Assembly (NCBI RefSeq): GCF_044324785.1
Contig: NZ_CP172127.1
Source of the DNA: Escherichia coli
GTDB lineage: Bacteria > Pseudomonadota > Gammaproteobacteria > Enterobacterales > Enterobacteriaceae
Strand: one strand, 5' to 3'
Length of the DNA stretch: 64,000 nucleotides
In this document: one piece after another, positions 3,188 through 56,763 of the stretch
Numbering within the stretch: the stretch's first letter is position 1
Layout of the letters: the number at the start of each line of letters is the position of its first letter
Notes under the pieces: model-generated
Told to the model about the DNA's origin: nothing
The model's database searches: none
The model's input: only the letters and a program-made list of their open reading frames with translations
Translations under genes and position numbers: made by a program

Positions 3188-3213
3188 GTTGCCGGATGTT
3201 TCCATCCGGCAAC
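3188..3213. terminator. 11-bp stem-loop between the convergent glnB and hmp 3' ends; possible bidirectional terminator, no clear U-tract
   Basis: Inverted repeat gttgccggatg / catccggcaac with 4-nt loop seen directly in the sequence. Confidence 0.4.
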
Positions 3214-35105: not shown

Positions 35106-35882
35106 ATGTCCGAAACAAAAAACGAACTTGAAGATCTGCTGGAAAAAGCAGCAACCGAACCGGCGCACCGCCCGGCCTTTTTCCGTACGCTACTGGGATC
35201 CACCGTCTGGGTGCCTGGTACGGCGGCGCAGGGCGAGGCTGTGGTTGAAGATAGCGCACTTGATTTACAGCACTGGGAAAAAGAAGACGGCACCAGTGTC
35301 ATTCCTTTTTTCACCTCGTTAGAAGCACTTCAACAGGTGGTTGAAGACGAACAGGCATTTGTCGTAATGCCCGTTCGCACATTGTTTGAGATGACCCTTG
35401 GCGAAACGCTCTTCCTTAATGCCAAACTGCCAACCGGTAAAGAATTTATGCCGCGTGAAATCAGTTTGCTGATTGGTGAAGAAGGAAATCTGCTGAGCAG
35501 CCAGGAAGTACTGGAAGGCGGTGAATCGCTGATATTATCGGAAGTTGCAGAGCCACCAGCACAAATGATTGATTCACTCACCACCTTATTTAAAACCATT
35601 AAGCCAGTGAAGCGTGCTTTTCTTTGTTCAATTAAAGAGAACGAAGAGGCACAGCCTAATTTACTTATTGGCATTGAAGCCGATGGTGATATCGAAGAAA
35701 TTATTCAGGCGGCGGGAAGTGTAGCGACCGATACATTACCTGGCGATGAACCCATCGATATTTGTCAGGTGAAAAAAGGGGAAAAAGGAATTAGCCACTT
35801 TATTACCGAACATATTGTGCCATTCTATGAACGTCGCTGGGGTGGTTTTTTGCGTGACTTTAAACAGAACCGGATAATCTAA
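35106..35882 (+). CDS. sseB: SseB (enhancer of serine sensitivity) family protein
   Basis: 258 aa from MSETKNELEDLL; position between pepB and sseA. Confidence 0.85.
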   Translation: MSETKNELEDLLEKAATEPAHRPAFFRTLLGSTVWVPGTAAQGEAVVEDSALDLQHWEKEDGTSVIPFFTSLEALQQVVEDEQAFVVMPVRTLFEMTLGETLFLNAKLPTGKEFMPREISLLIGEEGNLLSSQEVLEGGESLILSEVAEPPAQMIDSLTTLFKTIKPVKRAFLCSIKENEEAQPNLLIGIEADGDIEEIIQAAGSVATDTLPGDEPIDICQVKKGEKGISHFITEHIVPFYERRWGGFLRDFKQNRII

Positions 35883-35885
35883 AAT

Positions 35886-35912
35886 ATGCCGCCCCAAAGG
35901 GCGGCATTCGGG
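35886..35912. terminator. Bidirectional intrinsic terminator: ends sseB on the + strand and the putative ryfA transcript on the - strand
   Basis: Hairpin gccgccc caaa gggcggc; on the - strand it is followed by atatttt. Confidence 0.55.
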
Positions 35913-36199
35913 CTTACCTGCTGTTCTGAAGGTTGTTAACCACCAATAAATTGTTGCCGGAGAGACTCCGGTTATTATTTACCTCGGTTAACAGCGCACC
36001 AGAAACAATAAGTACGATACAAAAGCACCGTATCTTCATTGTGCGGTCCATGCGAAGACCGCATCACGACAGCACCACTGGCGATATTGCCGCGATAGCA
36101 AGCGCTGAGACGCGCTTGCCCTAACGGTCGCGGAACATCCTTTCCTTAAGCCAGCGCCCGCTTGCGAGACGGCGGAAAGGTCCGCAGTGGATAACACAC
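35893..36199 (-). ncRNA. ryfA: Putative ryfA transcript (about 300 nt), a small mRNA/sRNA carrying a short hydrophobic ORF
   Basis: From memory, ryfA lies next to the sseB 3' end in K-12. Candidate - strand promoter (-35 TTGTCA, 16-bp spacer, -10 TATTGT) near 36207-36234 and the terminator at 35886-35912 bound a roughly 300-nt unit. Confidence 0.45.
35914..36051 (-). CDS. Small hydrophobic ORF (45 codons; 41 from the internal Met at 36039): MDRTMKIRCFCIVLIVSGALLTEVNNNRSLSGNNLLVVNNLQNSR; candidate type I toxin-like membrane peptide (TimP-like)
   Basis: Hand-translated from the - strand; hydrophobic stretch CFCIVLIVSGALL; lies inside the putative ryfA transcript; not in the ORF track because it is under 60 aa. 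Confidence 0.35.
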   Translation of the reverse strand: MDRTMKIRCFCIVLIVSGALLTEVNNNRSLSGNNLLVVNNLQNSR

Positions 36200-36262
36200 T
36201 AACAGAACAATAATAACTCTCTTTTACTTGACAAAAAGAGAGTTACTGGCGAGTATTGTGTC

Positions 36263-36359
36263 CGCTGAGACGCGCTTGCATTACTACGGTTATACAATCT
36301 GCTGGAAAGGCCGCGAACCAAACCAGCAACAAATAACCGCCTGATTTTGGCGGTTTTTT
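36263..36359 (+). ncRNA. Candidate sRNA (about 97 nt) divergent from ryfA, with a 17-nt perfect antisense match to the ryfA 5' region; antitoxin-like (TimR-like)
   Basis: Promoter TTGACA (36228-36233), 17-bp spacer, GAGTAT; internal hairpin tgctgg...ccagca; intrinsic terminator aaccgcc tgatttt ggcggtt plus T6 at 36335-36359; 36263-36279 is identical to 36103-36119 on the same strand. Confidence 0.4.
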
Positions 36360-36539
36360 GTTGTTTAAAGAAAGTGAAATTACACGTTTAAGTAATATCT
36401 TTTACCAGTTAGTATATTTTAATATTAAGCGGGATTTGTTTATATTTGTCTGAATTCGGACTGATAAGCCAAATGAATTCAAAATCTATCCTTTTTTATC
36501 TACTTGACATCGTTGATGCATAAAGCGAGTATTGAGTAG

Positions 36540-36626
36540 ACGAGATACACTTGCAGTAATACAACCTGCTGGAAAGGCCGCGAATCAGACCAGCAATAAA
36601 AAAACCGCCAAATTCGGCGGTTTTTT
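36540..36626 (+). ncRNA. Sibling copy of the candidate sRNA (about 87 nt) with degenerate antisense region; its terminator is bidirectional and also serves sseA
   Basis: Same promoter architecture (TTGACA 36504-36509, 17-bp spacer, GAGTAT), same internal hairpin (cctgctggaaaggccgcgaa...cagca), terminator aaaaaaaccgccaaattcggcggtttttt. Confidence 0.35.
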
Positions 36627-36642
36627 ATTGCCTGTAAAAAGC

Positions 36643-37488
36643 TTATTTCAATGGCTCAACCGGTAAATCTGCCCGTGCGCCCCATTCACTCCATGCGCCG
36701 TCGTACAGTTTCACGTTTGGCACATCCAGCGTCGCGAGTGCCAACAAAACCACGGCTGCCGTTACACCAGAACCGCAACTGACGATAATAGGTTTGTCAT
36801 AACTTACGCCGCGACCAAAAAATATCGCATCCAGTTCATCGGTCGTTTTTAGTTCGCCTTCGCGCACCAGTTCCGTCCACGGAACATTCAGTGCTCCGGG
36901 AATATGTCCGCGACGTAAACCTGGGCGAGGTTCATCAACTTCTGCGTTAAAACGTGCAGCCGGGCGGGCATCGATAATTTGCGCCGTATTTTCATGGCTT
37001 GCCAATAACACATCGGTTACTTTCACCACGGCTTCAGGATTAAACGCGGCGTTAAACTCTCCTTCCGGCAGCTCTACTGCGCCTTCTTCTAATAGCAGAT
37101 CATCACGCTGCCAGCCTGCAAGTCCACCACCCAGAATCGACACTTTCTCTACACCAAAGGTGCGCAGCATCCACCATGCTCGTGGGGCTGAGAAAAGATT
37201 ACCTTCGTCATAGACAATCAGGTGCTTATCCTGGTTAACGCCTAATTCACGCATCGCCACGGCGAACGTTTCCGGGCGCGGCAGCATGTGCGGAAGCGGG
37301 GAAGTGTGATCAGAAAGCGCTTCGATATCAAAAAACACTGCGCCGGGAATATGTCCATTCAGATACTCCTGAGCAACGTTACGATCTTCCTGTCCAGGCG
37401 ACGCCATGCGGGCATCGATAATCTGAATTTCCGGGTCATCAATATGTTCGGCGAGCCAGTCGGCTCCTACAAACCATGTCGTGGACAT
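36643..37488 (-). CDS. sseA: 3-mercaptopyruvate sulfurtransferase (tandem rhodanese domains)
   Basis: 281 aa from MSTTWFVGADWL; active-site Cys loop (CGSGVTA); ORF-track upstream extension rejected. Confidence 0.9.
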   Translation of the reverse strand: MSTTWFVGADWLAEHIDDPEIQIIDARMASPGQEDRNVAQEYLNGHIPGAVFFDIEALSDHTSPLPHMLPRPETFAVAMRELGVNQDKHLIVYDEGNLFSAPRAWWMLRTFGVEKVSILGGGLAGWQRDDLLLEEGAVELPEGEFNAAFNPEAVVKVTDVLLASHENTAQIIDARPAARFNAEVDEPRPGLRRGHIPGALNVPWTELVREGELKTTDELDAIFFGRGVSYDKPIIVSCGSGVTAAVVLLALATLDVPNVKLYDGAWSEWGARADLPVEPLK

Positions 37489-46858: not shown

Positions 46859-46900
46859 ATTACGCCACGGTTACTTTATGTACCGTGGCGTAATCTTTTA
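46859..46900 (+). terminator. Intrinsic terminator downstream of rlmN
   Basis: 13-bp stem attacgccacggt / accgtggcgtaat followed by ctttta. Confidence 0.6.
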
Positions 46901-54585: not shown

Positions 54586-56763
54586 ATGCTGCGATGGAAA
54601 CGCTGTATTATTCTAACATTTATCTCTGGTGCTGCTTTCGCGGCACCAGAGATAAATGTTAAGCAAAACGAATCGTTACCTGATTTAGGTAGCCAGGCAG
54701 CACAGCAGGATGAACAAACCAACAAGGGTAAATCGCTGAAAGAGCGCGGAGCCGATTACGTCATCAACTCCGCCACGCAAGGGTTTGAAAACTTGACCCC
54801 TGAGGCGCTGGAATCTCAGGCCAAAAGCTATCTGCAAAGTCAAATCACCTCAACCGCACAATCTTATATTGAAGACACACTCTCTCCCTACGGTAAGGTC
54901 CGTTCGAACCTCTCCATTGGCCAGGGCGGCGATCTGGATGGCAGTTCCATCGATTATTTTGTTCCCTGGTACGATAATCAAACCACTGTTTATTTCAGTC
55001 AATTTTCTGCGCAACGAAAAGAAGATCGTACAATCGGGAATATTGGTCTTGGAGTAAGACATAATTTTGATGAATGGTTATTGGGTGGAAATATATTTTA
55101 TGATTATGATTTTACCCGAGGACATCGCCGTTTAGGTTTAGGCGGCGAAGCGTGGACTGATTATTTAAAATTCTCTGGCAACTATTATCATCCGCTTTCT
55201 GACTGGAAAGACTCTGAAGATTTCGACTTTTATGAAGAACGCCCTGCGCGCGGCTGGGATATTCGTGCCGAAGCCTGGTTACCTTCTTATCCGCAACTGG
55301 GGGGCAAAGTTGTCTTCGAGCAATATTACGGCGATGAAGTCGCCCTTTTTGGTACGGATAATTTGGAGAAAGATCCCTACGCGGTAACGCTTGGACTGAA
55401 TTATCAACCGGTGCCATTACTGACCGTTGGGACGGATTATAAAGCAGGGACCGGAGATAACAGCGATGTCAGCATTAATGCCACTCTTAATTATCAGTTC
55501 GGCGTTCCGCTAAAAGATCAATTGGATAGCGATAAAGTGAAAGCGGCTCACTCGTTGATGGGCAGTCGTCATGATTTTGTTGAGCGTAATAACTTTATTG
55601 TTCTGGAATACAAAGAAAAAGATCCGCTTGATGTCACCCTGTGGTTAAAAGCGGATGCCACCAACGAGCACCCTGAGTGCGTCATTAAGGACACTCCCGA
55701 AGCGGCCGTCGGGCTGGAAAAATGTAAATGGACCATTAACGCGCTTATCAACCACCACTACAAAATTGTCGCTGCGTCATGGCAGGCGAAAAACAATGCT
55801 GCCCGCACGCTGGTTATGCCGGTTATCAAAGAGAATACCCTGACAGAGGGTAACAATAACCACTGGAACCTGGTGCTGCCCGCCTGGCAGTACAGCTCTG
55901 ACAAAGCCGAACAAGAAAAACTCAATACCTGGCGAGTACGTCTGGCACTGGAAGATGAAAAGGGCAACCGACAGAACTCTGGCATGGTGGAAATCACCGT
56001 TCAGCAGGACCGTAAAATTGAGTTGATTGTTAATAACATCGCGAACGTGCCGGAAGAGAACAACCACAGCCATGAAGCCAGCGCCCAGGCAGATGGCGTT
56101 GATGGTGTGGTGATGGATCTCGATGTAACCGACAGCTTTGGCGATAACACCGACCGCAACGGCGATGCGCTGCCGGAAGATAACCTCACGCCGCAGCTTT
56201 ACGACGCGCAGGACAAACGAGTGACGTTAACCAACAAGCCTTGCTCGACCGACAACCCCTGCGTTTTTATCGCTAAACAAGATAAAGAAAAGGGCACTGT
56301 CACCCTCTCCAGTACCTTACCCGGCACCTATCGCTGGAAAGCAAAAGCCGCGCCCTACGACGACAGTAACTATGTGGATGTCACTTTCCTCGGGACAGAA
56401 ATTGGTGGGCTAAATGCATTTATCTATCGTGTGGGGGCAGCTAAACCCAGCAACCTGATAGGTAAAGATAAAGAACCGCTGCCGCTCAACAACACTTATC
56501 GATTTGTTTTGTGGCGTGACAGCAATAAAGACGGTGTCTTCCAGCAGGTCGAAAAACTGACTGACGAAGAGATGGCGCAGTACGACTACAAGTGGGAATT
56601 TACCGGCAAGAGCATCAATGGTGAAGTGGGTGCACAGGCGAACACATCCAATGAGGACATTGTGATTCCGGCCACTAACCGCGAAGCGGCGCAAACCTAT
56701 GGCGCACAAGCGGGAGATGGCTTGCAGGGATACGGTTTACGCGTGCTGTATACCAAAAAATAA
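54586..56763 (+). CDS. sinH: Intimin/invasin-family inverse autotransporter (SinH-like)
   Basis: Signal peptide MLRWKRCIILTFISGAAFA; region ERPARGWDIRAEAWLPSYPQLGGKVVFEQYYGD...GSRHDFVERNNFIVLEYKEK resembles the intimin/invasin beta-barrel as I remember it; C-terminal passenger; lies next to sinI and ratA. Confidence 0.7.
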   Translation: MLRWKRCIILTFISGAAFAAPEINVKQNESLPDLGSQAAQQDEQTNKGKSLKERGADYVINSATQGFENLTPEALESQAKSYLQSQITSTAQSYIEDTLSPYGKVRSNLSIGQGGDLDGSSIDYFVPWYDNQTTVYFSQFSAQRKEDRTIGNIGLGVRHNFDEWLLGGNIFYDYDFTRGHRRLGLGGEAWTDYLKFSGNYYHPLSDWKDSEDFDFYEERPARGWDIRAEAWLPSYPQLGGKVVFEQYYGDEVALFGTDNLEKDPYAVTLGLNYQPVPLLTVGTDYKAGTGDNSDVSINATLNYQFGVPLKDQLDSDKVKAAHSLMGSRHDFVERNNFIVLEYKEKDPLDVTLWLKADATNEHPECVIKDTPEAAVGLEKCKWTINALINHHYKIVAASWQAKNNAARTLVMPVIKENTLTEGNNNHWNLVLPAWQYSSDKAEQEKLNTWRVRLALEDEKGNRQNSGMVEITVQQDRKIELIVNNIANVPEENNHSHEASAQADGVDGVVMDLDVTDSFGDNTDRNGDALPEDNLTPQLYDAQDKRVTLTNKPCSTDNPCVFIAKQDKEKGTVTLSSTLPGTYRWKAKAAPYDDSNYVDVTFLGTEIGGLNAFIYRVGAAKPSNLIGKDKEPLPLNNTYRFVLWRDSNKDGVFQQVEKLTDEEMAQYDYKWEFTGKSINGEVGAQANTSNEDIVIPATNREAAQTYGAQAGDGLQGYGLRVLYTKK

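Follow-up and report, generated by a model that had tools for sequence, protein, structure and literature searches.

In the 64,000-nucleotide stretch of Escherichia coli DNA analysed here (the window), an inverted repeat sits in the region of about 80 bp which separates timP (ryfA), on the minus strand, from timR, on the plus strand. An earlier note on this DNA had read the symmetry as a shared operator or a cruciform-prone element that could couple the two transcripts, which raises the question of whether the dyad is a shared control switch or a local quirk of promoter DNA. If it were a true operator, a type I toxin-antitoxin pair would be balanced also at transcription initiation, and an operator or a promoter switch would add control at transcription to a system for which only post-transcriptional control has so far been assumed. 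The evidence set out below makes the local quirk the more likely answer. The value of the analysis lies in a correction, with the plus-strand transcript named as TimR and the mapped timP promoter elements placed.

The timP/timR locus and its inverted repeat

Positions 35880-36660 of the window are the E. coli sseB-sseA spacer, with 99.6% identity to strain N3. The timP mRNA, or RyfA RNA, lies on the minus strand at 35881-36185, where Rfam family RF00126 is matched over its full length with 318.6 bits (gathering score 80); its 5' end is at 36185 in the Rfam match and at 36183 by homology to Salmonella. The timP coding sequence (35914-36039, minus strand) specifies a small toxic protein of the inner membrane, 41 aa long, and near-identical E. 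coli genomes list this ORF under the name TimP, which its homologues bear as well. On the plus strand, the TimR antitoxin sRNA is placed at 36265-36362, with a 5' end set by homology to the Salmonella +1 (CTACGG...) to within ±2 nt and a strong, bidirectional terminator stem at 36335-36355; no Rfam family matched TimR itself. The 5' sequence of TimR, CGCTGAGACGCGCTTGC (36263-36279, plus strand), has the same DNA letters as 36103-36119, the TimR-binding site in the timP 5' UTR (minus strand). As a consequence of this direct DNA repeat, TimR is perfectly complementary to the timP mRNA over 17 nt.

A RyfA RNA, a small hydrophobic TimP ORF and a divergent complementary sRNA are therefore all present, as in loci of the timP/timR (ryfA) type, and the plus-strand transcript beside ryfA is, judged by its sequence, the antitoxin sRNA TimR (alias RyfB1, STnc2070). 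The type I toxin-antitoxin system timP/timR has been described (Andresen et al. 2020, PMC7667032; Fris et al. 2017, PMC5333039), and the window shares with the published system of Salmonella, E. coli and Shigella the locus itself, the Rfam ryfA match, the 41-aa TimP ORF, the divergent sRNA of about 100 nt, complementary over 17 nt to the toxin 5' UTR, the sseB/sseA synteny and the back-to-back promoters some 80 bp apart. The published work differs in that it covers post-transcriptional control, and the Salmonella allele studied there is without the palindrome; no mention of the palindrome was found in the literature searched on timP, timR and ryfA. The sequences through which toxin and antitoxin interact co-vary across at least three allele types, namely GAGACGCGCTTGC, GTGAA(A/G)CACCTGC and GTGGGGTG(T/C)CTGC. 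Several Escherichia species have interaction-sequence types in common, which suggests, at the level of sequence comparison, trans-specific polymorphism or recombination of specificity types.

The inverted repeat reported between the two genes, with 11-bp perfect arms at 36215-36244, is real and is in fact slightly longer: direct reading of the sequence, a repeat finder and a pattern search all agree on a perfect 12+12 bp repeat at 36214-36245. The left arm, TAACTCTCTTTT (36214-36225), is 100% complementary to the right arm, AAAAGAGAGTTA (36234-36245), which forms the first 12 bp of the 17-bp timR promoter spacer. The centre of 8 nt, ACTTGACA (36226-36233, plus strand), contains the timR -35 hexamer TTGACA (36228-36233), and TTGTCA is read on the minus strand at 36234-36229. 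The 64-kb window has 4 perfect inverted repeats whose arms reach 12 nt or more and whose loop does not exceed 20 nt, against 0.07 in 100 dinucleotide shuffles; a rate of 0.07 per 64 kb amounts to about five such repeats per whole genome by chance, and a chance origin is unlikely. Alignment of the 82 nt between the two transcription starts with their own inverse gave a score of 35, against 16 ± 4 in 500 shuffles (p about 0.002-0.004), and the hairpin formed by the dyad in single-stranded DNA has a folding energy of -9.5 kcal/mol (z = -6.3). Elsewhere in the window, perfect repeats with 11-12-nt arms occur at 46860-46893, 54621-54654, 57840-57868 and 3188-3213; at least three of them lie just beyond ORF ends and are terminator-like by position, and the repeat at 54621-54654 is near the start of an ORF.

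Promoters of timP and timR

The 5' ends of the Salmonella RNAs were taken from cloning primers in Table S2 of Andresen et al. (PMC7667032), namely GGCCCTTTCCGCCGTC for timP and CTACGGTGTGCC for TimR, the same table also holding 40 nt upstream of each start. Alignment to Salmonella placed the corresponding +1 positions of the window at 36183 for timP and at about 36265 for TimR. The alignment comprised 13 representative loci from E. coli alleles, E. whittamii, cryptic Escherichia, E. albertii, Salmonella, C. freundii and two other Citrobacter; the loci of Salmonella, C. freundii, E. albertii, E. marmotae and the cryptic clades had been found through TimP protein look-ups.

Upstream of timR, the arrangement TTGACA-N17-GA(G/C/T)TAT is kept in the 13 loci and in a paralogue, its distance to the TimR 5' end being constant, and the sequence of the spacer is almost wholly different between lineages. 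The timR -10 box of the window is GAGTAT (36251-36256, plus strand), 17 bp past TTGACA, and reads GAGTAT, GACTAT or GATTAT in other lineages. The proposal that TTGACA serves as the -35 box of a plus-strand promoter is thus borne out, this hexamer being the conserved timR -35 positioned upstream of the Salmonella-mapped TimR 5' end; the two hexamers stand 17 bp apart, are conserved and precede a mapped 5' end, as in a sigma-70 promoter. Given this alignment, the centre of the dyad is the timR -35 and its right arm belongs to the timR promoter spacer, unconstrained in sequence. A different short palindrome, (C)TCCCTT-AA-AAGGGA(G), is found in the timR spacer of Salmonella (L012) and C. freundii (L014), just upstream of the -10; it is statistically at chance level, yet is present in both genera.

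Two candidate -10 boxes are to be considered for timP. A TATTAT hexamer, at a constant 12 nt from the 5' end of timP, is invariant across the 13-locus alignment; at this place (36191-36196, minus strand) the window has TGTTAT, the hexamer being TATTAT in almost all of the other E. coli, Salmonella and Citrobacter. A promoter scan predicted an alternative sigma-70 promoter on the minus strand, TTGTCA (36234-36229)-N16-TATTGT (36212-36207), with a consensus score of 9/12 and a start near 36200. The same TTGTCA-16-TATTGT is listed as the constitutive ryfA promoter beneath a sigma-70 genomic SELEX peak by Shimada et al. 2014 (PMC3946193), where the hexamers are an in silico, sequence-based assignment and not a mapped start. 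Its minus-strand -35 hexamer is exactly that of the earlier note, and the palindrome goes unmentioned in that study. The Salmonella timP +1 (GGCCCTTTCC...), the Rfam ryfA 5' end and the published size of the RyfA RNA (about 300 nt) all fit the -10 at 36196-36191, from which TTGTCA is 32 bp away; the ROSE start-site supplement has no ryfA entry.

The left arm of the dyad covers -31 to -42 of the timP start predicted from Salmonella, that is, the weak -35 zone GAGTTA and a minus-strand A-tract, and it also forms the spacer of the predicted TTGTCA-N16-TATTGT promoter. Since TTGTCA is 32 bp from the -10 of the mapped start, the left arm contains the -35 zone of the mapped timP start, and the two -35 boxes adjoin without overlap. 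The designation of TTGTCA as the ryfA -35 box is uncertain: the scan and Shimada et al. 2014 arrive at the same hexamers, but the mapped Salmonella 5' end fits the other -10. Likewise, the picture of overlapping divergent -35 boxes depends on the sequence-predicted TTGTCA promoter and gives way to adjacent boxes for the mapped start. As to the window's own timP promoter, a C at 36195 makes the second, critical base of the -10 hexamer a G, and a 90-nt query was matched at 99% or more by only 11 of 5426 genomes; by its sequence, TGTTAT is possibly a promoter-down mutation in the toxin gene.

Conservation, origin and possible function of the dyad

Of 5426 E. coli genomes, 4292 carry the 32-nt element unaltered, 3272 of them with G at the polymorphic centre position 36226 (the K-12 form) and 1020 with A (the window's form), T being found there in one locus (L033); the element carries at least one change in a further 576 genomes and is missing from about 558. 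The arms match at 12 of 12 positions in the main E. coli allele, at 11 in the second K-12 copy, at 10 in ETEC4070 and L026 (two left-arm mismatches each) and at 9 in E. whittamii (three mismatches). Variants changed on a single side include AAAGAGAGAGTTA (strain 405), AAAAGAGGGTTA (strain TC_EC10) and TTAC... (second K-12 copy), and among seven distinct variants none of the 12 pairs was altered on both sides, so that no compensatory arm change was seen. No dyad across the -35 was found in the E. albertii-type allele, which occurs also in some E. coli and cryptic clades, or in Salmonella, C. freundii and two other Citrobacter, and self-inverted-repeat scores in lineages outside the E. coli-type allele are at chance (p 0.2-0.85). 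The E. albertii-type allele, Salmonella and Citrobacter nevertheless retain the two promoters and the two RNAs as well as the interaction site that co-varies. Within the window, the promoter of a second timR-like gene (TTGACA-N17-GAGTAT, 36504-36532) is also without a dyad. Conservation in orthologous spacers, the check that the earlier note had proposed, does not reach beyond one Escherichia allele, an outcome which that note had itself regarded as refuting its reading. Within E. coli, purifying selection on the dyad is conceivable, given the 4292 of 5426 genomes and the presence of the dyad in both tandem K-12 copies. A longer imperfect mirror, AAAAG[A/G]GAGTATT facing its complement, picked out by eye in every lineage with differing spacings, was rejected, as Smith-Waterman comparison with 500 shuffles placed it at chance outside the E. 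coli-type allele.

The dyad is probably a lineage-specific quasi-palindrome in the bidirectional timP/timR promoter region of about 80 bp, without a dedicated regulator. Its centre is the antitoxin -35, its right arm unconstrained spacer and its left arm the AT-rich zone at -31 to -42 of the toxin promoter; the symmetry would have arisen by mutation, most simply by intrastrand template switch or quasi-palindrome correction, or by drift from a precursor with 9-11 of 12 matches. Such symmetry would at most modify promoter strength, and any coupling of the transcripts would come more plausibly from the back-to-back RNA polymerase sites than from the palindrome. Quasi-palindrome correction, or intrastrand template-switch mutation (the Ripley model), is a known process, and the dyad resembles its products in being a perfect short repeat in fast-evolving non-coding DNA, with sister variants at 9-11 of 12 and a derived base which completes the symmetry. 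This base is the A at 36215, where all sister variants have T, as quasi-palindrome correction would predict. The E. coli-type spacer is moreover unrelated to the outgroup spacers, in which AAAAG(A/G) adjoins the -10, and both this and the A at 36215 are expected leftovers of a template switch or quasi-palindrome correction. A search for the exact mutational event, as an inversion or an 11-nt block swap, matched only the 5-mer GCCAG/CTGGC, at chance level; the event is not reconstructable because the whole promoter region has strongly diverged between allele types. With the locus, the RNAs and the minus-strand hexamers already known, the palindrome is best filed as an undescribed, allele-specific feature of a known divergent promoter.

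Binding of the 12-8-12 palindrome by an Escherichia-specific dimeric transcription factor, which would occlude the timR -35 together with the timP -35/UP zone and co-regulate both genes, is an unlikely alternative to this quasi-palindrome. Palindromic operators shared by divergent promoters are well established, as with bioO/BirA at bioA-bioBFCD, tetO/TetR and the LexA boxes at tisB/istR and dinQ/agrB, the last of these at other type I toxin loci. The timP/timR dyad resembles them as an inverted repeat over core elements of two divergent genes, but they are conserved along with their regulator and follow a defined consensus, whereas the dyad is allele-specific and uncompensated and lacks a LexA consensus. 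The perfect symmetry centred on the -35 hexamer, the high frequency of the element in E. coli, the rarity of a 12+12 perfect repeat under shuffling and the published effects of OmpR and CRP on RyfA are all compatible with an operator. Genomic SELEX shows binding of sigma-70 and sigma-S holoenzymes to the timP/timR spacer, which also bears an H-NS flag, and an OmpR motif is predicted somewhere in -100 to +10 of the RyfA start; together these keep the operator idea alive, and a protein could act near the dyad. By inspection, no LexA-like CTGT-N8-ACAG was present in the dyad, and a crude OmpR tandem consensus (GTTACA) had no match in 36180-36290, both being weak tests; resemblances of the dyad to CpxR, ArcA, IHF, Fur, CRP and LexA sites, sought by eye, included none that was convincing. 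An operator is further opposed by the loss of symmetry in alleles and species which retain both promoters and RNAs, by natural arms that differ at 1-3 positions with no symmetry-preserving pattern and zero compensatory changes, and by the description of timP mRNA as constitutively abundant. In published Salmonella data, timP mRNA is high in all SalCom conditions and deletion of timP or timR leaves the RNA level of the other unchanged; for Salmonella at least, this speaks against a shared operator with a strong effect, and the E. coli allele may behave differently. The dyad thus overlaps core promoter elements as an operator would, with neither a conserved or compensated symmetry nor a known regulator or consensus, and the suggestion of a shared operator is not supported, the symmetry being confined to one allele and its arm variants uncompensated.

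The symmetry could alternatively reflect two sigma-70 promoters sharing one -35 position (TTGACA/TTGTCA) and the same spacer on opposite strands, such that the orientation of RNA polymerase sets the ratio of the transcripts. The 9/12 score of TTGTCA-N16-TATTGT and its listing as the ryfA promoter under the sigma-70 SELEX peak speak for such mirrored promoters, as does the occurrence of TATTGT outside the arms on both strands (36207-36212, minus; 36254-36259, plus). The SELEX hexamers were, however, assigned from sequence and not from start-site mapping; the mapped Salmonella +1, the Rfam 5' end and the RNA size of about 300 nt fit the conserved TATTAT instead, and beyond the E. coli-type allele ATGTCA stands in place of TTGTCA and TATTGT is not retained, which leaves this arrangement with little probability. 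That the dyad sets the ratio of toxin mRNA to antitoxin sRNA transcription, as an operator specific to Escherichia or as a symmetric switch based on RNA polymerase competition, is seen as quite improbable. Extrusion of the palindrome as a cruciform under negative supercoiling between the diverging polymerases, which would mask the timR -35 and couple the promoters, is favoured by the perfect AT-rich arms, by a hairpin energy for each DNA strand of -9.5 kcal/mol (z = -6) and, under the twin-domain model, by the position between divergent starts. An unpaired centre of 8 nt with arms of only 12 bp would nonetheless make extrusion costly and the dyad a poor substrate, and the dyad is not conserved, with arm SNPs tolerated in natural strains; the notion of a cruciform-prone element is, like the operator, not supported in view of the missing conservation and uncompensated arm variants, and is very unlikely. 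Less probable still is a weak intrinsic terminator on the minus strand, shielding the timP promoter from read-through antisense to timR. The scan lists the dyad as terminator-like on that strand, with an RNA hairpin of -15.9 kcal/mol followed by UUAUUGUUCUGUU, but only 3 of 14 pairs are G-C, the U-tract is interrupted, upstream on the minus strand there is already the strong bidirectional terminator (36335-36355), no minus-strand promoter is predicted between that terminator and the dyad, and the dyad is missing from other lineages. A G+C-rich stem, an unbroken U-tract and a transcription unit ending at the dyad, as would characterise an intrinsic terminator, are all lacking.

Paralogues and rearrangements of the locus

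The second timR-like gene of the window (36501-36632) has its own promoter, a conserved body, CTGCTGGAAAGGCCGCGAA, and its own terminator. No timP lies alongside it, and its 5' recognition sequence, CGAGATACACTTGC, mismatches the timP site of the window strain, which gives it the look of an orphan antitoxin paralogue. An Rfam IS128 RNA match (RF00125, 166 bits) at 36317-36495 on the minus strand, antisense to the timR terminator, spans the AT-rich stretch between the two timR genes, and its 3' part is simply the bidirectional terminator. K-12 (L002, 1105-1300) has a truncated second timP 5' end together with an entire promoter region, a dyad matching at 11/12 and a further timR, and the TimR-binding site of K-12 timP, GCTGTGAAACACCTGC, matches the distal timR2 and not the neighbouring timR1; this arrangement implies, as far as the sequences go, an old tandem duplication with subsequent loss of one toxin gene.

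In E. albertii (L018/L019) and E. marmotae (L016/L017), the timR terminator hairpin (AACCGCC...GGCGGTT) is missing and CCAGCAATAAAAAACTTATTTCAC runs into the end of sseA. In E. marmotae (L016/L017) and C. amalonaticus (L008), the timP 5' UTR runs straight into the timR body, joined to it at the direct repeat common to both, a fusion which removes both promoters as well as timP stem-loop 1; these fusions look like recurrent inactivation of the locus through recombination between the complementarity repeats.
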